From assembly GCA_023244815.1 (NCBI GenBank), contig JAHFLQ010000004.1, positions 1 through 59,259 of the forward strand: a stretch of 59,259 nucleotides of DNA. Direction: 5' to 3'. The notes under the pieces were generated by a model. That model did not search any database. It was not told the origin of the DNA and was given only the letters and a program-made list of their open reading frames with translations. This document shows, one piece after another, positions 1-17,927 of this stretch. The first letter of the stretch is position 1, and each line of letters opens with the position of its first letter. Source of the stretch: a bacterium. GTDB taxonomy: Bacteria > Patescibacteriota > Minisyncoccia > UBA6257 > WO2-44-18. The position numbers were made by a program, and so were the translations under genes.

Positions 1-71
1 TGCCCCCACTAGGAATCGAACCTAGGTCAACTGGTTAAAAGCCAGCTGCTTTACCACTAAGCTATGGGGGC
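1..71 (-). tRNA. tRNA-Lys(UUU)
   Basis: Reverse complement folds as a cloverleaf: acceptor GCCCCCA/TGGGGGC, anticodon loop CTTTTAA, T-loop TTCGATT; no encoded CCA visible (window edge). Confidence 0.95.
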
Positions 72-192: not shown

Positions 193-669
193 ATGAGGGC
201 TGTGCTGAGGAGTGTGTTGTTCGGGATTAGTGGGGGCATAATTGGCATCGCTATAATGCTTTTAGTTCACTACGGCTTTACTGTCGACACCGTGAAAACT
301 GGCAGAACTGGCAGAGCTAGCCTGGAATTGCCGCTTATTGACACGATGGTTTCCATTGTGGAGGACGGTGCGGTTCGATTTGCAGTTTTTGACTATGACA
401 AAAAGGACATTTGCTATTTTTATGTCCCGATGGAAAATGTGAATGTTCTCAAAAGAAGTGACGGCAACGGCCACACATCGGTGATATTCAAAAACCAAAG
501 CCCGCACGGTCTAAACGACAAGTACAAAGACGCTACCATTCTTGCACCATCTGTGGAAGACGTTATTGAATGGAGCATCTGGCTAAAAGAGATTCAAACA
601 AGCAACCAAGAATACCAAGAGTCAAAAAAGAAATTTTCCCCGCGTCGTGTTTTACCGCCTAATAAGTAA
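193..669 (+). CDS. membrane-anchored hypothetical protein, paralog 1 of 3 (C-terminal PRRVLPPN motif)
   Basis: ATG 193 after GGAGG (track start TTG 178 lies upstream of the SD); N-terminal hydrophobic segment; shares RxDG, YTS/HTS, A-x-IL-x-P, W-x2-W/Y-LK and PRRVLPPN motifs with the next two ORFs. Confidence 0.85.
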   Translation: MRAVLRSVLFGISGGIIGIAIMLLVHYGFTVDTVKTGRTGRASLELPLIDTMVSIVEDGAVRFAVFDYDKKDICYFYVPMENVNVLKRSDGNGHTSVIFKNQSPHGLNDKYKDATILAPSVEDVIEWSIWLKEIQTSNQEYQESKKKFSPRRVLPPNK

Positions 670-678
670 ACTAACTAG

Positions 679-752
679 CCCCGCTACATAAGCGGGGTTT
701 TTGTTTTGGTTGACTTTGATTGGCGGGTGTTATAGGCTAACAACGGTTCATT
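679..752 (+). repeat. 74-bp terminator+promoter module, copy 1
   Basis: Identical to 1205-1278; hairpin CCCCGC-tacataa-GCGGGG plus T-tract, then TTGACT (710-715)-17-TAGGCT (733-738). Confidence 0.95.
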
Positions 753-765
753 GAAGGAGGAACGT

Positions 766-1191
766 ATGGGCAGAAAGTGGCAACTTGTTTGGGTCATCTT
801 GCTGGTTGTCTATGTTGCGTTCTTTGGTTGGTTGTTGGCCCCTGGGTTTTTGAAGCCCGACAAGGAATTGCCGATGTTGAGAGCGAACTTTTTTTCGGCT
901 GATGGGGACACATGGGACATTCGCGCTATTCTTGATGGAAAAGAGAAATATTTCTCAGTACCCATAAATAATTTATCTGTCCAATTACGCAACGATGGAC
1001 AGCCGTATACCTCAATCAAGCTTATTAATTCGCTTCATCCGAGTGACTGGAGCTACAAAGCGGCGGTTATTCTGGCGCCAACACCGGATGATCGCGCTGA
1101 TTGGGAAAATTACTTAAAAGCAAGAAAGGAAGCCCACAAGGAATATCAAGATTCAAAGCTTGTGCCGCGCAGAGTTTTACCGCCTAATTAA
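766..1191 (+). CDS. membrane-anchored hypothetical protein, paralog 2 of 3
   Basis: ATG 766 after AAGGAGG; N-terminal TM segment; ends VPRRVLPPN. Confidence 0.85.
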   Translation: MGRKWQLVWVILLVVYVAFFGWLLAPGFLKPDKELPMLRANFFSADGDTWDIRAILDGKEKYFSVPINNLSVQLRNDGQPYTSIKLINSLHPSDWSYKAAVILAPTPDDRADWENYLKARKEAHKEYQDSKLVPRRVLPPN

Positions 1192-1204
1192 ATAAACTAG
1201 CTAA

Positions 1205-1278
1205 CCCCGCTACATAAGCGGGGTTTTTGTTTTGGTTGACTTTGATTGGCGGGTGTTATAGGCTAACAACGGTTCATT
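1205..1278 (+). repeat. 74-bp terminator+promoter module, copy 2
   Basis: Identical to 679-752. Confidence 0.95.
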
Positions 1279-1302
1279 TACGGTTTATTTAAGGAGGTTT
1301 TT

Positions 1303-1767
1303 GTGAAGCTGTGGCTGATCCCGTTGGCACTTGTTTTACTCCTCGGTGTTTGCATTTATGGTGTGTACAATTCTGATAAGCCAACTGATGAGCCAACTTA
1401 TCCGCCCGGCGAAGACCCGCAAACTTTCAACCTTTCAGCTGCTTGGCCCTGGTACGGCTGCGTTGAGTTTTCGACCATCGAAGTTAATCATAGTGGCGAT
1501 CCTTGGAAGCTAATCGTTGATTTGAAGAAGATTGACGTGAAAGCAAGAAGTGATGGACAGTTATATACCAGCGCAACTTTTTTTAAACACAGGCCACCCT
1601 ACGATACTTTCAAGTATCGGCCAGCCTATGAATCCGCGACTATTTTGGTGCCAGCGGAAGATGTTGAGAGTTGGAATCGCTGGATTAAGAAAGAGCTTGT
1701 AGCGGAACAAGCAGCAGAGACAAGAAGGCGAGCAGACTTTCTCCCGCACCGGTTTTTACCAAGATAG
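1303..1767 (+). CDS. membrane-anchored hypothetical protein, paralog 3 of 3
   Basis: GTG after AAGGAGG (1291-1297); N-terminal TM/signal; RSDGQLYTS, ATILVP and PHRFLPR match the paralog motifs. Confidence 0.8.
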   Translation: MKLWLIPLALVLLLGVCIYGVYNSDKPTDEPTYPPGEDPQTFNLSAAWPWYGCVEFSTIEVNHSGDPWKLIVDLKKIDVKARSDGQLYTSATFFKHRPPYDTFKYRPAYESATILVPAEDVESWNRWIKKELVAEQAAETRRRADFLPHRFLPR

Positions 1768-1805
1768 TAAACTAGCTAACCCCGCTACATAAGCGGGGTT
1801 TTGTT
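1768..1805 (+). terminator. third, terminator-only copy of the module
   Basis: TAAACTAGCTAACCCCGCTACATAAGCGGGGTTTTGTT matches 1193-1231 except one T; followed by a different promoter TTGACT (1814-1819)-17-TAATCT. Confidence 0.9.
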
Positions 1806-1870
1806 ACGGACATTTGACTTATTTAATTATATATGTTAATCTCTTTTCAGAATATTGAAAGGAGAAAGCG

Positions 1871-2260
1871 ATGGACAGAGTCCCAGAAACGGACGAAGAG
1901 AAGGAGTGGGCCAACGATGTTTTCGCTGACTTATTGCTCGATGCGGTGAAGCGTCTTACTACCCCAGATCGTTGGGTCACGATTCTTCTTAAGTTTGAGA
2001 AGAAGATACAAGAAGAATCGGGAGCAATTCGTCCGCTTACCAGCTCCGCTCGTGAAAAAAGACACGAAGAAGTGAGGACCATTTTCCAACCTTGGAGGGA
2101 TGCCGAAGTGCCGGAATTTAGAGCACCCACCATCATCACGGAAATGCAGATTCGTGATGCGCTCTTTAAAAAGCTTGAAGAGCTGGTGCCAAAGAAGCAT
2201 TGGAGATTAGCCGTAGCGACTTTTAACGAACACGTTCGGCAAGTGCTGGAATTCTCCTAG
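1871..2260 (+). CDS. hypothetical protein (129 aa, helical)
   Basis: ATG with SD AAAGGAG, own promoter and downstream terminator; no recognisable motif. Confidence 0.75.
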   Translation: MDRVPETDEEKEWANDVFADLLLDAVKRLTTPDRWVTILLKFEKKIQEESGAIRPLTSSAREKRHEEVRTIFQPWRDAEVPEFRAPTIITEMQIRDALFKKLEELVPKKHWRLAVATFNEHVRQVLEFS

Positions 2261-2270
2261 CAGTATTGAT

Positions 2271-2296
2271 CCTCCGCTTGGTGCGGAGGGTTTTTA
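2271..2296 (+). terminator. intrinsic terminator
   Basis: CCTCCGC/GCGGAGG stem followed by T6. Confidence 0.8.
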
Positions 2297-2360
2297 TTTG
2301 CGATTGGCAAATTAAATTATCCGTGGTATTTTTTGGCTAGGACATTGAAGGAGAAATTTG

Positions 2361-2642
2361 ATGGCGAAGATCATCAAGCCAGGTAAAAAGAAGAGAACCA
2401 GCGGTCCGTGGATTGGCAAGAAAATAAAATGCACGGAGTGCGGATGCTGCTTTACATTGGAGAAGGGTGATCGAGTAAGAGAAACTTTTCACAGTATTAT
2501 GGCCAGGTCAGTTCGTTCGGCGGGCCTAGGTATGTCAACTACTTATAGACGTACGATACCTCTGGGCATATTTGTTTTTAACACGACCTGTCCTTATTGC
2601 GGGGATGGGTTTGAGTTCAGATGCAAAGGAGACGTGCGGTGA
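2361..2642 (+). CDS. small Zn-ribbon-like hypothetical protein
   Basis: CTECGC and CPYCG (two CxxC pairs); SD AAGGAG; promoter TTGGCA-17-TATTTT upstream. Confidence 0.7.
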   Translation: MAKIIKPGKKKRTSGPWIGKKIKCTECGCCFTLEKGDRVRETFHSIMARSVRSAGLGMSTTYRRTIPLGIFVFNTTCPYCGDGFEFRCKGDVR

Positions 2643-2724
2643 AAGTTTTTAAATGGCTAGACTGTTTTTTTCTTAAGATTGCTAAGTTCTTACACTTGGA
2701 CTAATATCGTGTGAAAAAAAATTA

Positions 2725-2751
2725 TCCTCGCAAAACCAGCGAGGACTTTTT
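2725..2751 (+). terminator. intrinsic terminator
   Basis: TCCTCGC/GCGAGGA stem plus T-rich tail. Confidence 0.7.
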
Positions 2752-2818
2752 ATTTACTGTACAAATTTAATAGTTGTGTTATCTTAGTCGCAGCACGTTG
2801 ATTTATGGGAGCATTAGC

Positions 2819-4084
2819 ATGTTGGGCCTAGTAATCAATCTTACCTTTCTTGTATCGGTCACCTTTTTTGTCTGTTTTTTAGCGGTTGCCACTTATCGTG
2901 TTGTTTGCGATTCAGAAGAAGTAAAAAATAAGGAAAAACGAGCAAAGCTACTCAAGCCTATTGAAGGCGTCTTTAATCCAAAAGAAGAGTTGATTAGAAT
3001 TCGCCAAACGCCCAAATCGGATCGCAGACAAAAACTGAATGAGTACAAGAAAAAATTAGCCAATCAAATAGCCGGATTAGCTATGGTTCAAACAGAAGTT
3101 ATTCAGGCCATTAGGAAAAATCCAGACAGCTCGCCTAAAGAGCTGATAGAAATGGCAAGGAGTTTAGGCGCAGGGTTTGGAATGAGCAAGAAGCAGTTCT
3201 ATTCGGCCAAAAAGATCTTGCAAAAGTATTGCATAAGACGCGCGAAAATAAGAAAGGCAAGAAGAAGAAGGTATCCTGACGATAAACGAATTTATCGGGC
3301 TGCATTTGGCGAAAATCCATCCAGCGCTGTCAGAGTCATAGAAAGTCCGTTCGTGCTTTATTTTTGTTGCGCGAATTTAGACGACTATGTCCGGATTTAC
3401 TTTTCTGATGCAGGCCCAACGTATCGGAATAAAAATGCAGAGAAAATGAATAAATCCGGTGGCGTATATAAGCCCCAGCTTGTAGTGTTCGGCGCTAAGG
3501 GGATAGTTGCGGCTGAAAAATCAAATGCTGGCCGCTTTAGTCGTGGCGTGTCTCCGCGCGTTTACAAACACGAAGAACAGCACGCCATCAATGCGCTTGT
3601 TGGAAGCAAAACACCGGAAAATTTTCATGAGGAATCCATACCCTACGGTCCAATTGAGCCCCTAACTCTGAAGCTAAAAAGATTTATATGCTCTAGGTGT
3701 CGTATGGTGGAGGCGCAAGCGCATGACGAGTTGCTGGCTTTCTTTACCTGCCCATCGGACGAGGTGGACGAAGTCTTCAGGTGGCTAACCAACACAGCGG
3801 CAGAAGGTGGGTCTTATGATTACTTAGACGAGGAAAGGAAATCACTCTTGGCGTATTTTGATGAGAATGGTGTTTGCTACTACCGGCAAATAGCCAAGGA
3901 AGTAGTTACTAAGGTTCTCCGAGACGAATATCGCGAACTGATTCGTACCGGCCTGAATGCCTTTCAACAGCTCTTAGGGCTTGGTTTTTCCAGAGAAGAG
4001 GCGATTGCTATTCTGGGTCATGAACCGCTAAGGCGATGGAGGAAGCTGGCTAATAGGCTTGCCGATACCGTTAAATCAAATTAA
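2819..4084 (+). CDS. membrane-anchored protein with HExxH motif (putative zincin-like metalloprotease)
   Basis: ATG 2819 after GGAG; N-terminal TM; KHEEQHAIN motif and downstream HDELLAF. Confidence 0.7.
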   Translation: MLGLVINLTFLVSVTFFVCFLAVATYRVVCDSEEVKNKEKRAKLLKPIEGVFNPKEELIRIRQTPKSDRRQKLNEYKKKLANQIAGLAMVQTEVIQAIRKNPDSSPKELIEMARSLGAGFGMSKKQFYSAKKILQKYCIRRAKIRKARRRRYPDDKRIYRAAFGENPSSAVRVIESPFVLYFCCANLDDYVRIYFSDAGPTYRNKNAEKMNKSGGVYKPQLVVFGAKGIVAAEKSNAGRFSRGVSPRVYKHEEQHAINALVGSKTPENFHEESIPYGPIEPLTLKLKRFICSRCRMVEAQAHDELLAFFTCPSDEVDEVFRWLTNTAAEGGSYDYLDEERKSLLAYFDENGVCYYRQIAKEVVTKVLRDEYRELIRTGLNAFQQLLGLGFSREEAIAILGHEPLRRWRKLANRLADTVKSN

Positions 4085-4086
4085 AA

Positions 4087-4110
4087 CCCCGCACAAGCGG
4101 GGGATTTTTT
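4087..4110 (+). terminator. intrinsic terminator
   Basis: CCCCGC-acaa-GCGGGG followed by T-tract, 2 nt after the stop. Confidence 0.85.
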
Positions 4111-4166
4111 ATTTCTGTACAAATTTTAAAGATTATGTTATTTTGGGCACAGTACCTTAACTCTTT

Positions 4167-4895
4167 ATGGAGGTGCGCTTGAAAGATTTAAAGATTTTCC
4201 AAAAGCTGATTGGTTACGAATTCAAGAACCTGAATTTGTTAGAAGAGGCGCTGACGCATAGTTCCTATCCGAACGAACACAAAGATTGGCCCTACAAATC
4301 AAATGAGAGGTTGGAGATGTTGGGTGATTCGGTTCTAGAGCTTGCGGCTACCGACGAGCTATTTAGAAAATTTCCTAAGTTCGCAGAAGGAGATTTAACT
4401 GCCGCTCGGAGCGCTATGGTTAATAACAAAACCCTGTCTAAGATTGCCGAAAAGCTCAACATCGCGGATTGGATATTTGTATCACGCGGTGAAGCTAAGA
4501 GTTCTGAAAAGCCGCGGAACGCTATGGCGGTGAGGGCACTCGAAGCAATTATCGGCGCCATCTATATGGATGCCGGCCACGACATTGCTAAAAAGTTTGT
4601 ACAGGAGCGCGTCCTACGTCAACTTATGAATTACATGGCCTTACTTGGCGGCGGATCCTATCGTGACGCGAAAAGTTATCTTCAAGAAAAGATGCAATCA
4701 GAAAAGGGGATTACATCAACATACCGGACGTTAAAAGAAACAGGACCAGAAAATGAAAAGGTATTTGTGGTGGGCGTTTATGCAGATAGCGAACTGCTAG
4801 GTATGGGGTCCGGTTCTTCCAAGAAAGAAGCGGAACAATGTGCCGCAAAGCATGCCCTTGATCAACTTAGCGCCAAAAAGGAGGCGATGAGATGA
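4167..4895 (+). CDS. rnc: ribonuclease III (divergent)
   Basis: NERLEMLGDSVL signature, LEAIIGAIYMD, C-terminal dsRBD (DAKSYLQE...GSSKKEAEQ); the real start may be TTG 4179 after GGAGG. Confidence 0.92.
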   Translation: MEVRLKDLKIFQKLIGYEFKNLNLLEEALTHSSYPNEHKDWPYKSNERLEMLGDSVLELAATDELFRKFPKFAEGDLTAARSAMVNNKTLSKIAEKLNIADWIFVSRGEAKSSEKPRNAMAVRALEAIIGAIYMDAGHDIAKKFVQERVLRQLMNYMALLGGGSYRDAKSYLQEKMQSEKGITSTYRTLKETGPENEKVFVVGVYADSELLGMGSGSSKKEAEQCAAKHALDQLSAKKEAMR

Positions 4896-5830
4896 AACTA
4901 AGCAAAAAGCTGAACATATTAGAAATGTACTGCTTAGATCTGGAAAAATTTGAAAGAATTTCACCACAAGAAGAAAAAAGGCTAATTGCGGCGATTAGCA
5001 AGGCTCAGAAAGACAACAATCAGCAGCTGGCGATCCGACTTCGTAATGAGCTCGTGGAGATTAATTTAAGATTGGCGCTGATGGTGGGTAAAAGATTCGC
5101 TCGGTATCTTGATATTCGATCGAAAAGTGTGGATGAGTTAGACCTTATCCAAGAAGCAAATCTCGGATTAATCAAGGCAGCTGAATCATTCAATCCAAAA
5201 AGAGGGTTTCGGTTTTCTACTTACGCCTATTCTGTTATAGAGGGTTACGTAAAAAATTTTGTTCGTGACCGTCTTAGATTTATTCGGGTTCCTGCTGATT
5301 GCCAGAGAATGGTTTTCAGGGCGCGTGAAGCGTCGGTTGCCGATAATGGTCGTACGCCTACTTTGCAGGAAATATCTGAAGCGATGAAGATTTCGAAGGA
5401 AGACGCAATGCTTCTCACGGCCATAATTAACACCCGTGTATCGTCCTTGGACACGGAGATTGCTGATGGCATGAAGCTTGTAAATAAAGTTGCTTCCAGG
5501 CGTCTTTCTAGTAGTCAGGTGCTTGAAGCAAAGGAAGCACTGTCGGAAATTTTCCAAGCTATGGGTGGACTACCAGAAGAAGTAGCCAAAGTATCAACTT
5601 TGAAGGAATACCAGATATTTTTTCATCGATACGGCCTTGACGGAAGCCACCAATTTAAAGATACTACAGAAATTGGCAGACGGTTTCGCATAACAAATGA
5701 AAGGGTTCGTCAGATTATTAATGAGGTTTGGAAAAAACTGAAAGAAGCACGCCTTTGGTCTGGCGAAAGTAAACTTTGCGAGTTTCTTAGTCAGTTTGAT
5801 AAACTCGAAGGTATAATTGCCGCAAATTAA
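4892..5830 (+). CDS. sigma-70 family RNA polymerase sigma factor (RpoD/RpoS-like fold, degenerate region 2.3-2.4)
   Basis: DLIQEANLGLIKAAESFNPKRGFRFSTYA (region 2), PTLQEISEAM (region 3), EIGRRFRITNERVRQI (region 4.2); ATGA overlap with rnc. Confidence 0.88.
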   Translation: MKLSKKLNILEMYCLDLEKFERISPQEEKRLIAAISKAQKDNNQQLAIRLRNELVEINLRLALMVGKRFARYLDIRSKSVDELDLIQEANLGLIKAAESFNPKRGFRFSTYAYSVIEGYVKNFVRDRLRFIRVPADCQRMVFRAREASVADNGRTPTLQEISEAMKISKEDAMLLTAIINTRVSSLDTEIADGMKLVNKVASRRLSSSQVLEAKEALSEIFQAMGGLPEEVAKVSTLKEYQIFFHRYGLDGSHQFKDTTEIGRRFRITNERVRQIINEVWKKLKEARLWSGESKLCEFLSQFDKLEGIIAAN

Positions 5831-5857
5831 AATCCCGCAATTGATTGCGGGATTTTT
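5831..5857 (+). terminator. intrinsic terminator
   Basis: AATCCCGCAA/TTGCGGGATT 10-bp stem plus T-tract directly after the stop. Confidence 0.85.
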
Positions 5858-5910
5858 AATCGACAAGAAATGCCTTGTGGGGCAACCGGTCCCGTTTTTA
5901 TTTTAACGGG

Positions 5911-6186
5911 CTATTTTGTGTCGGGCTTTTTCGAATCCTCTTTCTCAACCATTTTATCTAGCCAGAAGAGAAGTCCGGCGATAACGATGAATGCCAAAAG
6001 ACCAATACAGGCGGTGGGCACAGCTTCTTTTTGAGGAGTGCATTTGATTAGTACGACCAGCATAATAATGGTAATCGGAATCAGAAAACAGCCGCTAAGA
6101 ATGCCCACGCCATCTTTTAGGTACAGCCATACGTGCCAAACGATAAAGCCAACGGCAGCTCCAACCAAAACCGAAAACATCACCAT
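5911..6186 (-). CDS. small membrane protein (3 TM)
   Basis: Three hydrophobic segments; SD AGGAG upstream on the minus strand. Confidence 0.7.
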   Translation of the reverse strand: MVMFSVLVGAAVGFIVWHVWLYLKDGVGILSGCFLIPITIIMLVVLIKCTPQKEAVPTACIGLLAFIVIAGLLFWLDKMVEKEDSKKPDTK

Positions 6187-6276
6187 TGCCCAGCTCCTAA
6201 AAACTTTCTAAAAGAAACTTTGCTTAATATACTACATTCAAAATAAATATAAAAGAGGCCAATTAAAAAACCGCGT

Positions 6277-6759
6277 TTAACGCGGTTTTTCTAAAATTTT
6301 GTAGCTTCTTATCTCAAGCCACCAAGTTCCCTTTATGTTAGTTTTTTTACCATCGAGATCTTCCAGGGTAAAACTTTCTAGCGTGTATGTGTACCTATGC
6401 CTGACGTAAAAAGTTACTTCGATAACTGCTCCTCTCGCAAAATCGTTAGTGGTGCCAGGCGTTGCTAGAAAGTAGTTTACGCCGTCGGAATTCACTACAC
6501 AGGTTGTTACGGGTTCTTCTCGGTTCTCGTGTTCCAGCAAGCTCAGACGTCTGGTTGAGGAGCCCACATAAATAAGGCATCCTTTTATGTACTTCTCTGC
6601 CGCCTGCTCAGATTTCAGGATTTTTGGAGTTTCATCTGAAGAACAGCTACGCAACAGGAAACTGCCAAACAACCACAAAAGGATATACAGCACTGCCGTG
6701 ATCGTAAAGCAAATCAAGAGGTCGAATTCTCCTCTTTGCGCCACAAGTTTTCGCGGCAC
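6277..6759 (-). CDS. membrane-anchored hypothetical protein
   Basis: GTG at 6759 after AAAGGA; promoter TTGACA-17-TACATT lies inside the longer track ORF (6277..6837); N-terminal TM; terminator 6265-6290 overlaps the stop. Confidence 0.75.
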   Translation of the reverse strand: MPRKLVAQRGEFDLLICFTITAVLYILLWLFGSFLLRSCSSDETPKILKSEQAAEKYIKGCLIYVGSSTRRLSLLEHENREEPVTTCVVNSDGVNYFLATPGTTNDFARGAVIEVTFYVRHRYTYTLESFTLEDLDGKKTNIKGTWWLEIRSYKILEKPR

Positions 6760-6862
6760 AGTTCGTCCTTTCAATGAACGGTCATTAATGTAATGTAAAT
6801 AATTTAAATTGTCAAGATTGGTTGCTTCAAAAATCAAAATAAGTTATATTCATTTCTATTAA

Positions 6863-8152
6863 ATGAACTCAAGAGGTAAGACCAGTTTTTTTCTATTTTT
6901 AATAATCTTGCTCGCCCTCGTCAGCGGGTTTTTTGTTTTTCCAAAGGGTCTGGGCGGTCGCGCATTGCCGTGGCATCTTGGCCTGGATTTGGTGGGCGGC
7001 AGTTATTTGGTTTACCGAGTAGATATGACAGACGTTGCTTCCGGCGACCGGAGTTCGGTACACGGAGGCATACGGGACGTAATGGAGCGGCGCGTGAATG
7101 TTTTCGGCGTCAGTGAGCCGCGCGTTACTACCGCCAAAGTCGGCGATTCCTATCAGATCATTGTTGAGTTGGCTGGCATCAAGGATGTTGAGCAGGCGAT
7201 TCAGCAAATCGGACGGACGGCACTTTTAGATTTCCGGGAAGTGATTCAGGCTCCTCCGATACCCGGTAGGGAAGCGACGACGCAGAAGTTAAACGAAAAG
7301 CCTTTGTTTGTCCCGACTAAGCTCACCGGCCGTTACCTGAAAAAAGCGGAGATTGGCACCAACCCCAATACCAACCAGCCACTTATTTTAATTACTTTTA
7401 ACGAAGATGGGGCGAAGCTTTTTGAAGAAATGACCGCAAAATTAGTAGGAAAACCGCTGGCAATTTTTCTAGATGATGAACTGATTTCGTCGCCGACCGT
7501 GCGGGAAGCCATTAGCGGCGGCAATGCCCAGATTACCGGCAATTTTACCTTCGACGAAGTCAAGAAACTGGTGAGTTTATTCAATGCCGGCGCTTTACCG
7601 GCCCCGATTTCGCTCATCAGCCAGCAAACCGTTGGAGCGTCGCTTGGATTAGATTCTTTGACCAAAGCAATCGTTGCTGGCCTGATCGGCGCGCTCGCGA
7701 TTATGCTGTTTATGGCTGTTTACTACCGGAAACTTGGCCTGGTCGCGTCGCTGGCGCTTCTATTCTACATAGCGTTTTCTCTCGCGGTTTTTAAACTGTT
7801 TGGCATTACGATGACACTCGCCGGCATTGCCGGATTCGTGCTTTCTATCGGCATGGCGGTGGACGCGAATATTCTGGTTTTTGCCCGCACCAAAGAGGAG
7901 CTGGCTAAAGGAGTTTCCAACACCGGTGCCCTGGAAGAGGGTTTCCGACGCGCCTGGCCATCTATCCGTGACTCCAACATCAGCACCATGATCACCTCGG
8001 CAATTTTGTACTATCTCACCTCGAGTTTCGTCCGCGGTTTCGCGCTGACTTTGTTTCTTGGTGTGATTGTCAGTATGTTCAGCGCCATTACTGTTACCAG
8101 AGTTATTCTGCGAATTTTTACCAAAGACAAACCGCTAGCCACCAGCCGCTAA
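6863..8152 (+). CDS. secD: protein translocase subunit SecD
   Basis: LGLDLVGG, RRVNVFGVSEP, GMAVDANILVFAR, DSNISTMI motifs. Confidence 0.97.
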   Translation: MNSRGKTSFFLFLIILLALVSGFFVFPKGLGGRALPWHLGLDLVGGSYLVYRVDMTDVASGDRSSVHGGIRDVMERRVNVFGVSEPRVTTAKVGDSYQIIVELAGIKDVEQAIQQIGRTALLDFREVIQAPPIPGREATTQKLNEKPLFVPTKLTGRYLKKAEIGTNPNTNQPLILITFNEDGAKLFEEMTAKLVGKPLAIFLDDELISSPTVREAISGGNAQITGNFTFDEVKKLVSLFNAGALPAPISLISQQTVGASLGLDSLTKAIVAGLIGALAIMLFMAVYYRKLGLVASLALLFYIAFSLAVFKLFGITMTLAGIAGFVLSIGMAVDANILVFARTKEELAKGVSNTGALEEGFRRAWPSIRDSNISTMITSAILYYLTSSFVRGFALTLFLGVIVSMFSAITVTRVILRIFTKDKPLATSR

Positions 8153-8159
8153 CAAAAAA

Positions 8160-9026
8160 ATGATGCAAATAATAAAAAATAAATATATCTTTTTGGCGAT
8201 ATCCGGTTTGCTAGTAGTAGCGGGTATTGCCGCGATAGTATTTTTCGGCTTGAAGCCCGGCATCGATTTTTCCGGCGGCGTTTCCTGGCAACTGCATTTC
8301 CAAGGCACCGTTCCCGCCCGCGATGAAATTGCTCCATTGTTTTCCGACGCAGTGATTACTCCCCAAAGCGGCGGCAACTTTTTGATCCGGCTGAAAGATC
8401 TAAGCGAAACCGATCGCAAGGCGCATCTCCAGCAACTGAACGACTCTTTTGGTGCCGTGGAGGAATTGCAGTTCCAAAATATTGGGCCGGTGGTTGGCCA
8501 GGATTTGAAAAATAAATCCGTCTGGGCGTTCATATTGGTGCTATTCGCGATTTCTGTTTATGTTGCTTTCGCTTTCCGGAAAGTCTCACGGCCGGTGAGT
8601 TCCTGGAAATACGGCATTATTACTTTGATAACGCTTTTTCACGACGCGATTATACCCGCCGGGCTGTTTGCGATTTTGGGCAAGTTGTTCAACGCGGAAA
8701 TGGACACTAATTTCGTGGTAGCGATTCTGGTAGTAATGGGCTTTTCTGTACACGACACGATCGTGGTGTTCGACCGAATCCGGGAGAATCTCAGGCTTTC
8801 GCGCGTGGATAAGGTTGATTTCAATGAACTTGTGAACGTGAGCGTTAACCAGACGATGGCCCGATCAATCAACACCTCATTTACGCTTATTTTAACCCTG
8901 CTGGCACTGCTCTTTTTGGGCCCCTCCACCCTGACCTTCTTTGTTTTGACTATCTTAGTAGGCACGATTGTCGGCACCTATTCATCAATTTTTGTTGCTA
9001 GCCCACTATTGACCATTTGGCGGTAG
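8160..9026 (+). CDS. secF: protein translocase subunit SecF
   Basis: GIDFSGG, GFSVHDTIVVFDRIRENL, ARSINTS, GTYSSIFVA. Confidence 0.97.
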   Translation: MMQIIKNKYIFLAISGLLVVAGIAAIVFFGLKPGIDFSGGVSWQLHFQGTVPARDEIAPLFSDAVITPQSGGNFLIRLKDLSETDRKAHLQQLNDSFGAVEELQFQNIGPVVGQDLKNKSVWAFILVLFAISVYVAFAFRKVSRPVSSWKYGIITLITLFHDAIIPAGLFAILGKLFNAEMDTNFVVAILVVMGFSVHDTIVVFDRIRENLRLSRVDKVDFNELVNVSVNQTMARSINTSFTLILTLLALLFLGPSTLTFFVLTILVGTIVGTYSSIFVASPLLTIWR

Positions 9027-9101
9027 TTGTGATATCATTACAGGCAACATAATGTTATAGGTGTTGACACCTATAAAGGCATTGTGTTAATATCTCAACC
9101 A

Positions 9102-10097
9102 ATGATTGAAGTTTCCAAAATCAACAATCTTATTAAATACTGCCTGGCGGGACTTTCGCCGCGGCAAAAAGAAATAATTGATGGCCGCTATGGCCTGACC
9201 AACGCGGAGAGTCTGACGCTCGCCGAGCTTGGCGGCAAATATAACCTGACCCGTGAGCGCGTTCGCCAGATCGAGGCTATTGCCCTGAAAGCCTGCAAAT
9301 CCAAATCTGCAAGTCTGGAACTTTCCGAATTCATAAAAACTGTTGTTGCCAGCTTACGGACTACCGGTGGTTTGAAACGGGAGGATTTGCTTATCCACGA
9401 ACTGGGAGGCGAAGCGCAAGCCAACCGATTTAAATTTCTTTTGGAAATCAGCGGCAAATTTCAATATGCGAAAGACGAAAAAACCTTCTACCCTTATTGG
9501 TATCTTTCTGATGTTGATAAAAAGAGGGCAGAATCTTTTGTGTCCTCTCTAGTGAAAAGCGCGGATCGAGAAAACTTTATGGCGAGTTTTATTTCCGCCG
9601 CGAAAACCTTAGGCCTGTCGGACGCGGTCGCCCGCCATTACGCCTCTGTTTCCAAGAAAATTTCTATGAATACTTACGGCAATATTGGCCTTTCCGATTG
9701 GCCGGAAATTAATCCAAAGACCGCCCGCGATTGGGCTTATTTGGTTTTGAAAAAAGAAAAGCGCCCGCTCCACTTTACCGAAATCGCAGAACGGGTTACC
9801 GGCCTTCGCAAAAAGAGCGCCCACGCTCCGACCGTCCATAACGAATTGATTAAGGATGAGAATTTCGTACTGGTTGGCAAAGGCACCTATACCCTGAAAG
9901 AATTCGGCGTTATTCCGGGTACCGCTCGCCAGCTGATTTCCCACTTTTTGAAAAAGCATGGGCCGATGAAGGCCAACGACGTTGTTAAACTGGTACTCAA
10001 GGAGCGCCTCTTCAAAGAAAATACGGTCTTAATCAATCTCCAGAACCGCCGGAACTTCAAGCGGATGGATGACGGCCGTTATACTACTTTGGTATAA
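9102..10097 (+). CDS. sigma-70 region-4-like HTH plus HARE-HTH (RNAP delta-like) domain protein
   Basis: N-terminal LTLAELGGKYNLTRERVRQIE; C-terminal RPLHFTEIAE...TVHNELIKDENFVLVGKGTYTL; ATG 9102 follows an extended -10. Confidence 0.75.
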   Translation: MIEVSKINNLIKYCLAGLSPRQKEIIDGRYGLTNAESLTLAELGGKYNLTRERVRQIEAIALKACKSKSASLELSEFIKTVVASLRTTGGLKREDLLIHELGGEAQANRFKFLLEISGKFQYAKDEKTFYPYWYLSDVDKKRAESFVSSLVKSADRENFMASFISAAKTLGLSDAVARHYASVSKKISMNTYGNIGLSDWPEINPKTARDWAYLVLKKEKRPLHFTEIAERVTGLRKKSAHAPTVHNELIKDENFVLVGKGTYTLKEFGVIPGTARQLISHFLKKHGPMKANDVVKLVLKERLFKENTVLINLQNRRNFKRMDDGRYTTLV

Positions 10098-10104
10098 TTA
10101 TTGA

Positions 10105-11379
10105 GTGATTGTTCAAGTTCTCCACGGTATTTTAAATAGCATTTTTTCCGTGTTTGCCGTCAGCTGGTGGATTATTTTACCGCTAGCGATGGCTTTTGTT
10201 TTCTGGCAGTTTTGGACCTATTACATCTATGTTCAGTATCTTAGGTCTCAGAAATGGGTTTTATTGGAAATTAAAATTCCGGCTGTTATTGAAAAAACCC
10301 CCAAAGCGATGGAACAGGTTTTTGCCGCTGTTTACGGGACCTATTCTTTCGGGTTCACTTTTCGCCAAAAATATATTGAGGGACACGTGAGAGAAGACTG
10401 GCTGTCTTTTGAGCTGGTCGGTTTTGCCGGCGGCGTTCATTTTTACGTGCGCACTCCGGATTCCTACCGTAACCTGATTGAGGCGGCTATTTATTCGCAG
10501 TATCCGGACGCGGAGGTTCATGAAGCTCAGGATTACCAAGATTTATTTCCCAGGACCCTGCCCAATAAAGTTTATGATATTTTCGGTACCGACTATCATC
10601 TGGTCCGAGAAAATGCCTATCCAATCCGCACCTACGAATTTTTTGAATCTACCGTAGACGAACATCGTTTAGACCCAATTGCCGCTATTACCGAAGCGAT
10701 GTCCAAGTTGAAAAATGACGAAGCGATTTGGATCCAGATTTTCGTGCGGCCCGCCGGACCGGACTGGAAAGAAGAAGCCGAAGAAGTGCTGGACAAGCTT
10801 ATCGGCCGCAAGAAGCCGGCACCGCCGAAGGGCATGCTGAGCAATTTTGGCGAGTTTGCCAGGAATCTTTCGGTAGCCGCCATCGAACATCCGAGCTGGG
10901 AAGAAGCTGCGGTAAAGAAGGAAGAGAAAGAAAAAAATCTTTTGCTGGGCCTTACTCCGGGCGAGCGGGAAATTCTGGAAGCTATCGAAGAAAAAATGGG
11001 CAAGCTTGGGTTTGAAACAAACATCCGATTTGTTTATATAGACAGGCGGGATAGTTTTACCCGATCAAATATTGCCGCGGTAATGTCCACCTTCCATCAA
11101 TACAGCGCGCCGCATCTCAACGCTTTTCGTCCAAACGTGAGTACGCTAACCGTGGTACGCGGTAATTTGAAACTGGCGAAAGACCGCCGACTTTGGTACA
11201 AGAAGCGTCGGATTTGGGATGCTTACCGGAGAATGTACTGGCCTCGCAAGACCTCCATCTTAAACACCGAAGAATTAGCGACCATCTTTCACTTCCCAAG
11301 CATAGTCGTAGAGGCCCCATTACTTCGTCGTTTGGGCGCGAAAAAGGGCGAGCCGCCAGCTGGTTTGCCTGTGGAGTAA
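10105..11379 (+). CDS. conserved membrane protein, probable partner of the downstream coupling-protein-like ATPase
   Basis: N-terminal TM; LLEIKIP...AMEQVF, WLSFELVG, ELATIFHFP motifs resemble N-terminal modules of CPR VirD4-like proteins (recall, not searched). Confidence 0.65.
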   Translation: MIVQVLHGILNSIFSVFAVSWWIILPLAMAFVFWQFWTYYIYVQYLRSQKWVLLEIKIPAVIEKTPKAMEQVFAAVYGTYSFGFTFRQKYIEGHVREDWLSFELVGFAGGVHFYVRTPDSYRNLIEAAIYSQYPDAEVHEAQDYQDLFPRTLPNKVYDIFGTDYHLVRENAYPIRTYEFFESTVDEHRLDPIAAITEAMSKLKNDEAIWIQIFVRPAGPDWKEEAEEVLDKLIGRKKPAPPKGMLSNFGEFARNLSVAAIEHPSWEEAAVKKEEKEKNLLLGLTPGEREILEAIEEKMGKLGFETNIRFVYIDRRDSFTRSNIAAVMSTFHQYSAPHLNAFRPNVSTLTVVRGNLKLAKDRRLWYKKRRIWDAYRRMYWPRKTSILNTEELATIFHFPSIVVEAPLLRRLGAKKGEPPAGLPVE

Positions 11380-11607: not shown

Positions 11608-13269
11608 ATGGAAATTAATTTTTTTGGAGAAGTAAATTTTCGGGGCTCTACTAAAAAATTTGGCATTAAAACCGATGACCGGCGCCGGCATATGTATTGC
11701 ATTGGCAAAACCGGCATGGGTAAGACGACGCTACTGGAAAACATGGTAGTGAACGATATTCGCGCTGGCAATGGCGTGGGTATTGTGGATCCGCATGGCG
11801 ATTTCGCCGAAAAAATGCTGGAATTTGTACCCAAAGATCGCATTAAAGACGTGATCTATTTTAACCCCGCCGATATCGAATACCCGGTGGCTTTTAATCC
11901 GATCGAAAAAATTTCCGCCGGCTACCGCCACCTGGTGGCCTCCGGCTTAATGGGCGTATTCAAGAAAATTTGGCCAGATGTCTGGTCGGCTCGTATGGAA
12001 TATATCCTAAACAACTCGCTCCTGTCCCTATTGGAATCTCCAGACGCTACTTTGCTTGACGTAATGCGTTTGATGTCCGACAAGGATTACCGAAAGAAAA
12101 TTGTAGACAATCTTCAGGATCCGGTGATGAAGAATTTCTGGGTGAACGAGTTTGCTCGCTACGCGCAGAAATTTGAAACGGAAGCGACCGCCGCCATTCA
12201 AAATAAGATCGGCAAATTCGTCGCCAATCCTTTAGTGCGCCACATTTTGGGCCAGCCAACTTCCGCTTTGGACTTCCGCAAGTCTATGGATGATAAAAAG
12301 ATTATGATTTTCAACCTCTCCAAGGGCCGCATCGGCGAGGATAATTCCGCCCTGCTCGGTTCCATGATTATTACTAAGCTCCAGCTGGCGGCCATGTCGC
12401 GCGTGGATATCGTCAACGAAGCTGACCGCAAAGATTTTTTCCTGTACGTGGATGAATTCCAAAATTTCGCCACCGATTCCTTCGCCAACATTCTTTCGGA
12501 AGCCCGCAAATACCGCCTGTCGCTGATCCTTGCCCATCAGTATATCGGCCAACTGGTGCACGAGATGAATACGAAAGTTCGGGACGCGGTGTTCGGCAAT
12601 GTCGGTACAATGGTGGCTTTCCGCATCGGCGCGGAAGACGCCGAATTTCTGGAAAAAGAATTTGAGCCGGATTTTATGGCGACCGATCTGGTGAACATTC
12701 CCAAGGCTAATTTTTATATCAAACTGATGATTGACGGCGTATCTTCGCGGCCATTTTCCGGGCGGGGCATCGCGCCCGTCCAGCGTCCAGCTAGTGCATT
12801 TGTAAAAGAGATCGTCGAACATAGCCGCAAGACCTATGCTACTCCACTGAAGGCTGTAGAGGAGAAAATTGCGAGTAATTGGGCTATCGCGCCAGAAGAA
12901 GAACGACCAGAAAGGCCTCCGCGAATGAGTGACAGTATGGCGCCCCGTCGCCCAATGGGTAATTACCCACCCAGGCGGCCATCTGGCCCCCTTCAGAGCA
13001 GGCCCATGGATTTTGATACGACACGCCGATCGGAACGAGAATACCGGCCGCCAGCCAGGGAAGTTCGCCCTGAGCCCGCCGGACGTGAGCAGTCTGCTCC
13101 AAGGCCCGTCCCGACTATCTCGCTCAAAGATTTGAAACCGCGCGAGATGCCGCCACAAGCGCCAAGCGAAAAACCGAAAGAACCGGTTAAACCTCCGGCG
13201 CAGGCGGTTGACGTGGGTGAGCTGCGCAAAGCTTTGAAAGAATCACTGGACAAGAAGAACCCGCAGTAA
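11608..13269 (+). CDS. VirD4/TraD/HerA-like ATPase (type IV coupling protein-like)
   Basis: Walker A GKTGMGKT, Walker B LYVDEFQNF, LSEARKYRLSLILAHQ; Pro/Arg-rich C-terminal tail. Confidence 0.88.
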   Translation: MEINFFGEVNFRGSTKKFGIKTDDRRRHMYCIGKTGMGKTTLLENMVVNDIRAGNGVGIVDPHGDFAEKMLEFVPKDRIKDVIYFNPADIEYPVAFNPIEKISAGYRHLVASGLMGVFKKIWPDVWSARMEYILNNSLLSLLESPDATLLDVMRLMSDKDYRKKIVDNLQDPVMKNFWVNEFARYAQKFETEATAAIQNKIGKFVANPLVRHILGQPTSALDFRKSMDDKKIMIFNLSKGRIGEDNSALLGSMIITKLQLAAMSRVDIVNEADRKDFFLYVDEFQNFATDSFANILSEARKYRLSLILAHQYIGQLVHEMNTKVRDAVFGNVGTMVAFRIGAEDAEFLEKEFEPDFMATDLVNIPKANFYIKLMIDGVSSRPFSGRGIAPVQRPASAFVKEIVEHSRKTYATPLKAVEEKIASNWAIAPEEERPERPPRMSDSMAPRRPMGNYPPRRPSGPLQSRPMDFDTTRRSEREYRPPAREVRPEPAGREQSAPRPVPTISLKDLKPREMPPQAPSEKPKEPVKPPAQAVDVGELRKALKESLDKKNPQ

Positions 13270-17375: not shown

Positions 17376-17927
17376 ATGATTAAAAGAAAATTTGGAATAG
17401 TAACTATCGCGCTTCTTAAACTAATCACCGAGCGGGGTAAGTTGCTTATCAATGAGATTTTAGCGAATCCAAGAAAGACACTTGGACAGAGTTTACGCGC
17501 TATAGCGGACGCCAAAGATTTCGACCAGCACTACGAAGCGCTAGAAAATCTGAAGGACTCAAATGTCCGCATGATAATTTCCCGACTTAAAAGTAGAGGC
17601 TTGATAGCTCGGTATGGTAAGCACTACATCCCTACTAAAACGGGAGAGTGGGTGATTAATAAATTAAAGTCAAAAGAAAAATTGGCATGGGATAAAAAAT
17701 GGAGGGTTGTATTTTTCGATATTCCGGAATCTAGGCGGGGTGATCGAAAGTGGCTAGTAGCAAACTTATTGAGCGAGGGATTTCGCTCTCTCCAAAAAAG
17801 CGTTTTTCTTGGCAAGAATCCATTAGATCAAGACTTAGCCGAGACATTAGTTAGAAAAAATCTTTATCGATTTGTCAGAATAATAACAATAGGTGAAATC
17901 GATGACGACAATATTTTAGAAATATAA
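17376..17927 (+). CDS. PaaX-like regulator (winged helix plus Cas2-like ferredoxin fold)
   Basis: NVRMIISRLKSRGLI (wHTH); WDKKWRVVFFDIPESRRGDR...GFRSLQKSVF (PaaX/Cas2-like). No CRISPR array or other cas genes in the window. Confidence 0.8.
   Translation: MIKRKFGIVTIALLKLITERGKLLINEILANPRKTLGQSLRAIADAKDFDQHYEALENLKDSNVRMIISRLKSRGLIARYGKHYIPTKTGEWVINKLKSKEKLAWDKKWRVVFFDIPESRRGDRKWLVANLLSEGFRSLQKSVFLGKNPLDQDLAETLVRKNLYRFVRIITIGEIDDDNILEI

Follow-up and report, generated by a model that had tools for sequence, protein, structure and literature searches.

Identical spacers between anciently diverged tandem genes for anchored extracytoplasmic proteins in a Patescibacteriota contig

How can two intergenic spacers be identical at every base when the genes that they separate have diverged to saturation? 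The question is raised by positions 193 to 1,805 of a bacterial contig (JAHFLQ010000004.1, assembly GCA_023244815.1; GTDB lineage Patescibacteriota, Minisyncoccia, UBA6257, WO2-44-18), whose 59,259 nt, read on the forward strand, are called the window below and supply all coordinates unless another contig is named. Three consecutive forward-strand genes for small proteins (genes 1, 2 and 3) form a tandem array, and the same 74-mer stands on either side of gene 2. The reading that we favour, with a probability of roughly 55%, is that recent short-tract gene conversion or template switching made the two spacers of an old tandem family identical. Part of the same DNA lies on a longer contig (ERZ27279942 k141_4186903, 139.6 kb, here L001), on which window position 1 corresponds to position 9024.

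Spacer 1 (S1, following gene 1) and spacer 2 (S2, following gene 2) share 74 of 74 bases, 679-752 being equal to 1205-1278. This confirms the exact repeat described in an earlier reading of the window made without database searches (the sequence-only reading), and the match cannot be extended by one base at either end. It is the core of a wider homology (repeat family D2) between 649-752 and 1174-1278, the two copies of a putative homogenised tract, which differ at four of 105 aligned nt (96.2% identity). Copy 1 runs from the last five codons of gene 1 through the stop codon, terminator and promoter as far as the leader of gene 2; copy 2 includes the hairpin of the second terminator, T2 (1203-1225), and the -35 and -10 boxes that precede gene 3 (1236-1241 and 1259-1264). 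Both edges are sharp. On the left, the codons GTT TTA CCG CCT AAT are identical in genes 1 and 2 and the preceding Arg-Arg pair is CGT CGT versus CGC AGA, so that identity at synonymous sites reaches five codons into the genes and ends at the Arg codons, as expected for the edge of a copied tract. The final codons of both genes have GTTTTACCGCCTAAT in common, in agreement with the earlier remark that DNA identity enters the coding sequence. On the right, exact identity with S1 ends in the gene-3 leader at 1278, inside an 11-nt tandem duplication (1269-1290, repeat family D4) whose units are ACGGTTCATTT (1269-1279) and ACGGTTTATTT (1280-1290), a typical footprint of slippage. The terminator half is found once more behind gene 3, again as had been noticed: T3 (1768-1805) equals T2 minus one T in the T-run (39-nt alignment, 97.4%, one gap), and downstream of it lies the promoter of a 129-amino-acid (aa) open reading frame (ORF), unrelated to the spacer sequence. 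On both strands of the whole window the hairpin CCCCGCTACATAAGCGGGG occurs only at 679, 1205 and 1780, and a 34-nt piece of the promoter half found no match in 100 shuffles of the window.

The repeated block belongs to a unit of constant anatomy: TTGAC(T/A), 17 nt, TAG(G/T)CT, a short leader with GGTTCATTGAAGGAGG, the gene, its stop codon, TAAACTA-CTA-, and a hairpin followed by a T-run. Gene 1 has its promoter-like site and leader, called P0, at 137-192 (repeat families D3/D4), with -35 TTGACA at 137-142, -10 TAGTCT at 160-165 and GGTTCATTGAAGGAGG at 172-187; P0 is the equivalent, diverged long ago, of the promoter in the spacers. Gene 1 itself (193-669, ATG start, 158 aa) is followed by terminator T1 (677-705), recovered by two terminator scans as a hairpin at 677-699 with its T-run. 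The site preceding gene 2 (710-765) has -35 TTGACT at 710-715, -10 TAGGCT at 733-738 and the Shine-Dalgarno (SD) sequence GGAGG at 756-760; it was read from the sequence, the promoter scan having missed it because TAGGCT matches only 3/6 bases of TATAAT. Gene 2 (766-1191) starts with ATG and encodes 141 aa, and gene 3 (1303-1767) starts with GTG and encodes 154 aa. GGAGG lies 5 nt ahead of the start codon in all three. The terminator hairpins have an 8-9 bp GC stem and a loop of 5-7 nt, depending on the closing pairs counted; T1 and T2 appear in the terminator scan and T3 (hairpin 1778-1800) was recognised in the repeat analysis. To judge by sequence, the three units appear to be monocistronic and separately transcribed, each with candidate -35/-10 boxes, SD and terminator of its own, as the sequence-only reading had proposed.

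The genes are much older than the spacers. That they are paralogs, as first suggested from scattered shared motifs, is borne out by the profile of a protein family described below, which they match at E-values of 1e-30 to 1e-39 (1.7e-36 for gene 1, 1.3e-39 for gene 2 and 4.1e-30 for gene 3), with R-x-D-G...T-S, I-L-x-P-x-x-(E/D)-D...W and P-[RK]-R-[VI]-L-P. The shared motifs are present, with some departures (HTS in gene 1, WIK and a C-terminal PHRFLPR in gene 3). Aligned codon by codon in pairs, the genes are 28-38% identical in amino acids, 43-49% in nucleotides and 30-37% at third positions. Four-fold sites within identical amino acids agree at 6/17, 6/19 and 7/15; for one pair the synonymous divergence dS of Nei and Gojobori (NG86) is 2.3, and for the other two it is undefined. 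A neighbour-joining tree that includes 29 members of the family from other organisms unites genes 1-3 in a clade in only 17/100 bootstraps; they are about as distant from one another as from homologues in other bacteria. The spacers, with no change in 74 sites, have a divergence of at most ~0.04 per site. Set against the saturated synonymous sites, this makes the common ancestor of the spacers at least 50 times younger than that of the genes. Coding DNA that aligned as well as the spacer, which the sequence-only reading had taken as the mark of a simple recent duplication, is not what we find (43-49% against 74/74), and a recent tandem duplication is excluded by this identity and the saturated dS. 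The picture by which gene conversion is recognised, a near-identical block with sharp edges between far older flanks, is the one observed: 0/74 and 4/105 differences against saturated synonymous sites. The earlier idea of the spacer as a unit of recombination or homogenisation is upheld to this extent.

Could selection alone have kept the spacers identical? The locus carries its own control in the first promoter, which parts selection from recombination. Between P0 and S1 the -35 box is kept at 5/6 bases, the -10 box at 5/6 and the stretch from -10 to SD at 20/22, while the 17 bases between the boxes agree at only 7/17; between S1 and S2 the same bases agree at 17/17. As P0 is a unit of the same type that has retained its boxes, the inter-box bases are free to drift, and their full identity in S1 and S2 extends beyond what selection explains. 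Selection accounts for the boxes and the leader, and does not account for the whole 74-mer.

The reading that we favour starts from an old family of three genes in tandem, each transcribed on its own and encoding a small extracytoplasmic protein with an N-terminal anchor, in which purifying selection would keep two short islands alike in every unit: on the left the last codons V-L-P-P-N with the stop and TAAAC, on the right the -10/leader/SD stretch (GGTTCATTGAAGGAGG). These islands, together with any core already identical, would offer a foothold for intrachromosomal gene conversion, or for replication template switching, between direct repeats 526 bp apart, and the unconstrained bases between them would be copied from unit to unit. 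The tract would have stopped at the far less similar coding DNA, and all three terminators would likewise have been kept alike. As a consequence, genes 2 and 3 would stand under the same promoter and be insulated by the same terminator. We infer conversion as the mechanism, the islands as its anchors, and any direction that it took.

Several points weigh against this reading. Searches of the collections turned up no relative that has the three-gene array. The number and direction of events cannot be read from three copies in which every difference is private to one of them, and a single insertion of gene 2, by recombination in a pre-existing spacer, would leave the same picture. Moreover, with 15-16 nt the anchors fall short of the minimal processing segments measured in E. 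coli for exchange by RecA, so that a first event would have had to proceed without RecA or from a longer similarity, now overwritten. A mosaic argument built on the three terminators (T2 resembling T3 on its left and T1 on its right) was dropped, since private differences prove no recombination.

Concerted evolution by gene conversion, to which we assign the phenomenon, is familiar, and in anatomy the locus resembles two other systems. In bacteria the classic cases include tufA/tufB and the rrn operons. As in those, non-reciprocal copying would keep two copies identical within sharp tract edges; the difference is that the classic cases homogenise coding or RNA sequence, whereas here a non-coding spacer and five terminal codons are affected and the coding DNA is saturated. 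The first of the two anatomical parallels is the upstream homology box (UHB) of Borrelia, said to be a near-identical promoter region upstream of divergent paralogous genes for exported proteins and thought to act in their common regulation as well as in recombination. Its copies reportedly lie on different cp32 plasmids or prophages, have no terminator half and precede genes for host-interacting lipoproteins. Compared by description only, the likeness lies in divergent paralogs for exported proteins that share a near-identical upstream region, and the difference in the separate cp32 replicons and missing terminator half of the UHB, against one tandem array here. The UHB of the ospE/ospF/elp (erp) family goes back to Marconi et al. 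(1996, J Bacteriol 178:5615), as cited in PMC10016077.

The second parallel, already drawn in the sequence-only reading, is with the promoter-early stem-loop (PeSL) cassettes of T4-type phages. These are composites of ~100 bp with an upstream stop codon, a stem-loop terminator, a sigma-70-like promoter, an SD and a start codon (Arbiol et al. 2010, PMC2839356); when they recombine with one another, ORFans are lost or gained and mini-circles arise (Arbiol et al. 2010, PMC2839356; Comeau et al. 2014, PMC4122927). The anatomy of the array agrees with this description, to judge from its 105 nt with stop codon, predicted hairpin (677-699) with T-run, TTGACT-17-TAGGCT and GGAGG 5 nt before ATG, and the direct orientation of the repeats around a short gene would allow gene 2 to be deleted or circularised. 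It differs in that the hairpin lies upstream of the -35 box and carries a T-run, in that the flanked genes are paralogs where PeSLs flank ORFans, in copy number (2-3 local copies, against ~50 dispersed over the hyperplastic regions of a T4-type phage genome) and in the host, here a bacterial chromosome with RNase III, sigma-70, SecDF, EF-P and MnmA in the window. The analogy thus holds for the anatomy, and the defining behaviour, shuffling, was not seen.

Shuffling of this kind is the strongest of the rival explanations, although we consider it rather unlikely. The spacer would then be a portable homology block at which recombination releases gene 2 and one spacer as a circle of 526 bp, the reverse reaction would insert single-gene modules, and gene 2 between its identical spacers would be a recent insert. 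The perfect 74-nt direct repeats (near-perfect over 95-105 nt) around gene 2 are indeed a substrate for deletion or circle formation, and the composite fits the PeSL description down to its ~100-bp conserved span. Over its first 6 kb the window carries one short monocistronic gene after another, every one followed by a terminator, the array stands beside a tRNA gene and a mobile defence island, and the organism encodes ComEC with pilus/type II secretion system-type ATPase and platform proteins, which makes DNA uptake conceivable. What speaks against shuffling is the distribution of the module. Two full copies and one half copy are all in one paralog array, and the genes they flank are homologous to each other rather than ORFans or unrelated cargo. 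The genome sequence searched amounts to 77 kb (9 kb upstream on L001, the window, and 8.6 kb downstream, L020), and no further copy was found in the other ~75 kb. Among GTDB representative genomes the terminator 23-mer matched only two Polynucleobacter terminators with dissimilar flanks; degenerate leader and terminator patterns had no match in JGI metagenomes, the terminator and promoter halves none in IMG/VR, and the module none by blastn in phage and plasmid collections. Within this coverage, the search for the module that had been suggested returns this array only, and relatives that possess one or two family genes do not have the cassette. Two relatives, L018 and L019, each carry two family genes with unrelated genes between them, and their terminators have a GCCAGCC stem in common and are 70-78% alike. 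No presence/absence variant was found among assemblies from three other samples or records, which at 99.9-100% identity are uninformative on turnover, the collections holding no moderately diverged strain.

Shuffling by the spacer is thus mechanistically possible and unsupported, and the swapping, addition or loss of genes proposed in the sequence-only reading finds no backing in an array-only module, identical assemblies and paralogous flanked genes. The bolder form of the idea, in which the spacer would be a bacterial counterpart of PeSLs and modules for envelope proteins would be excised as circles, lost, re-inserted and exchanged by transformation without a dedicated recombinase in a bacterium with a reduced genome (probably one of the Patescibacteria), appears to us more doubtful still. 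Were it true, each module would arrive already insulated and expressed.

Purifying selection on the entire 74-nt spacer, as a functional cis element (an operator array, a leader or 3'-untranslated-region RNA, or a tuned terminator-promoter insulator), is an unlikely explanation, even though part of the block is under selection: the leader is conserved between P0 and S1 (20/22 from -10 to SD) and, in its core, across genera. This core, GTTC(A/G)TTGA (motif GTTCATTGA), lies just 3' of the -10 box (sites in the window at 172-187, 745-760 and 1282-1297) and is shared with single-copy homologues in other genera (418-426 in L002 and 4012-4020 in L015, whose SecD is 61% identical to that of the window); it may be an operator or an element of the 5'-untranslated region. 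In L002 and L015, however, the homologues have this motif only and the rest of the spacer is unlike theirs, and P0, which does the same job for gene 1, differs at 10/17 inter-box bases and has no terminator upstream. Terminator loops and the flanks of T-runs are normally not constrained in sequence. A search of the spacer against Rfam gave nothing above threshold, only sub-threshold Trp-leader matches caused by the terminator, and beyond the terminator hairpin no unusual folding was detected (z = -1.5).

It is far less probable that the repeats are sites of a site-specific or transposable element, attC-like or resembling miniature inverted-repeat transposable elements (MITEs), on which a recombinase such as the neighbouring serine enzyme would act. 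With integron arrays the locus has in common a row of short same-strand genes with a hairpin-forming repeat after each and a recombinase gene close by: ~1.3 kb to the left, the longer contig encodes a large serine recombinase (Ccr/XisF-like). This is the only recombinase nearby and lies beyond tRNA-Lys, among type I restriction-modification genes and a KAP NTPase on the 3' side of the tRNA gene, the side usual for islands; the array is on the 5' side. No IntI tyrosine recombinase, attI or Pc was found. The repeat is an ordinary 8-9 bp GC stem with a T-run, that is an intrinsic terminator by its sequence, rather than the long imperfect palindrome of attC, and unlike integron cassettes each gene has its own promoter-like site. 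Nor does the spacer behave as a dispersed repeat of the repetitive extragenic palindrome, bacterial interspersed mosaic element or MITE-like type: the 77 kb hold no copies outside the array, and the only inverted repeat in the spacer is the terminator stem.

An assembly artefact, in which repeat collapse or a strain chimera would have made the spacers identical, is the least credible explanation: the source is a metagenome, in which repeats are classic points of breakage or chimerism, and one Logan contig does break within the repeat, but two records agree, an assembly at k 141 spans the repeat, the break falls at k-1 as for a real repeat, and none of the three ORFs is broken and each matches the family profile. 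The first 10,669 bases of the window are identical to part of the MEGAHIT contig L001 (10,669/10,669) and, as its final k-mer of 141 (from the contig name) exceeds the 74-105 nt of the repeat, each copy was assembled with its unique flanks; the two records (59 kb and 139.6 kb) have different contig ends. The Logan contig (k = 31), from the separate run SRR14366791, is identical to window 1249-7768 at 6,520/6,520 positions and starts exactly 30 nt (k-1) inside the second 74-mer, where the de Bruijn graph must branch, which supports a true repeat. Collapse or chimerism, raised in the sequence-only reading as an alternative, is therefore an unlikely source of the identity.

Genes 1-3 belong to an unnamed and widespread family of anchored extracytoplasmic proteins. 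The three proteins had no match in Pfam, NCBIfam, PHROG, PADLOC or PDB sequences, and word-indexed protein searches gave few relatives; a full HMMER search of 1.84 billion cluster representatives (clusters at 50% identity) was needed to recover the family, with 113 members at E <= 1e-3 (homologues are labelled P0004-P0123). Most members have 120-200 aa, with an N-terminal signal peptide, lipobox or membrane anchor, followed by a domain of ~100 residues with the motifs V-x-L-R-x-D-G-x-x-Y-T-S and A-x-I-L-V-P-x-x-E-D-V-x-x-W, and in most of them by a strikingly conserved C-terminal tail, P-[RK]-R-[VI]-L-P-P. The protein of gene 1 is typical in order, with a membrane anchor at the N-terminus, the family domain and PRRVLPPNK at the C-terminus. 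A few members have two domains, and one match of 1777 aa contains 16 matched stretches. Some carry a short cytoplasmic Cys/His-rich N-terminus (C-P-H-H-x-D-x-x-C-x-x-C) ahead of the membrane helix and one has a prepilin-type N-terminus (the Cys/His-rich, prepilin-type or 1777-aa variants are among P0012, P0022, P0029, P0033, P0037, P0055, P0071, P0095, P0123; P0068; and P0008).

The AlphaFold2 model of gene 2, built from 56 sequences, has a predicted local distance difference test score (pLDDT) of 92. It predicts a helix at residues 2-24, six strands from 33 to 104, a helix at 107-131 and an extended tail. With this model Foldseek found in the PDB only weak matches resembling oligonucleotide/oligosaccharide-binding (OB) or cold-shock proteins (E >= 0.02, template modelling (TM) score <= 0.34), and in BFVD only small anchored beta-barrel proteins with a TM score < 0.4. 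The predicted fold is confident, without a convincing structural relative, and we assign it to no fold family.

Other genomes have the family gene in single copy, with a promoter-like site and terminator of its own, and in conserved neighbourhoods (L005, L008 and L011-L014, where it occupies 6001-6444 or the corresponding place; L015-L017; L002). These genomes probably belong to the Candidate Phyla Radiation (CPR), to judge from one named homologue (Candidatus Harrisonbacteria) and from gene content. The first neighbourhood reads groES-groEL-dCMP deaminase-thyX (or thyA-dihydrofolate reductase)-[gene]-(lemA)-M48 peptidase, with hrcA-grpE-dnaK within a few genes after it in one lineage (L011-L014). 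The second reads grpE-dnaK-dnaJ-[gene]...M50 peptidase-secD-secF-sigma/HARE-HTH. Since the segment secD-secF-sigma/HARE-HTH is also present in the window, the array is plausibly the positional counterpart of the single gene of the second neighbourhood; LemA, M48 peptidase, GroEL and ThyX, neighbours of the family elsewhere, are absent from the window. The association with these genes hints at a possible role in the quality control of the envelope or of membrane proteins. The earlier label of variable surface proteins finds no support; in relatives the gene is single-copy and its chaperone and protease neighbours are conserved.

To the left the array adjoins, as had been stated, a tRNA-Lys gene with anticodon UUU (1-71, minus strand; 78 bits with the Rfam tRNA model), of which the final 3 nt fall outside the window start; on L001 ARAGORN places it at 9021-9094. 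Directly left of window position 1, L001 1-9020 is a mobile defence island that abuts the 3' end of tRNA-Lys, the usual side. It includes a KAP-family NTPase (PifA/QatA-like in PADLOC), type I restriction-modification genes (HsdR and an HsdM-containing protein of 807 aa) and a large serine recombinase of 397-446 aa (Resolvase/Recombinase/Zn_ribbon_recom), with 119 nt between the end of its gene and the 3' end of tRNA-Lys. The earlier remark that no integrase would be needed locally has to be qualified: inside the window none is present, and on the longer contig this recombinase lies close by. The contig of the window ends inside the 3' end of the tRNA gene, which suggests that the island junction varies among strains. 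The array lies outside the island, and nothing ties the serine recombinase to it.

Some further features of the window are reported for completeness. All five CCCGC...GCGGG hairpins of the 59 kb lie within 677-5851 (at 679, 1205, 1780, 4087 and 5834), in the first 6 kb, where 0.73 would be expected, and two of the five follow unrelated genes; in L019, four consecutive terminators have one stem in common, GCCAGCC. There may be a tendency for adjacent terminators to be alike in these genomes. Downstream of the array, 1871-4084 holds three monocistronic ORFs of 129 aa, 93 aa (with two CxxC pairs) and 436 aa, for which no family was found in Pfam, NCBIfam, PHROGs or PADLOC and no counterpart in the loci of relatives. 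Further along are a sigma-70 region 4/HARE-HTH fusion protein (9084-10097), an ORF of 424 aa (10105-11379) annotated as DUF8128 on the longer contig and without a Pfam match here, a TrwB/TraG-like coupling-protein ATPase (11608-13269) and a PaaX/Cas2-like protein (17376-17927; no search for cas genes or a CRISPR array was made). The sigma-70/HARE-HTH, coupling-ATPase and PaaX/Cas2-like features fit a genome of CPR type.

The array offers a clean natural case in which non-coding DNA appears to have been homogenised between neighbours whose coding parts have diverged to saturation. Should modules also be gained and lost through the spacers, bacterial chromosomes would share a mechanism so far known from T4-type phages alone, with a bearing on the variation of envelope proteins in very small genomes. 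The unnamed family, with a confidently predicted fold that has no solved relative and with its link to chaperone and membrane-protease genes in relatives, may be a tractable target for the study of function.

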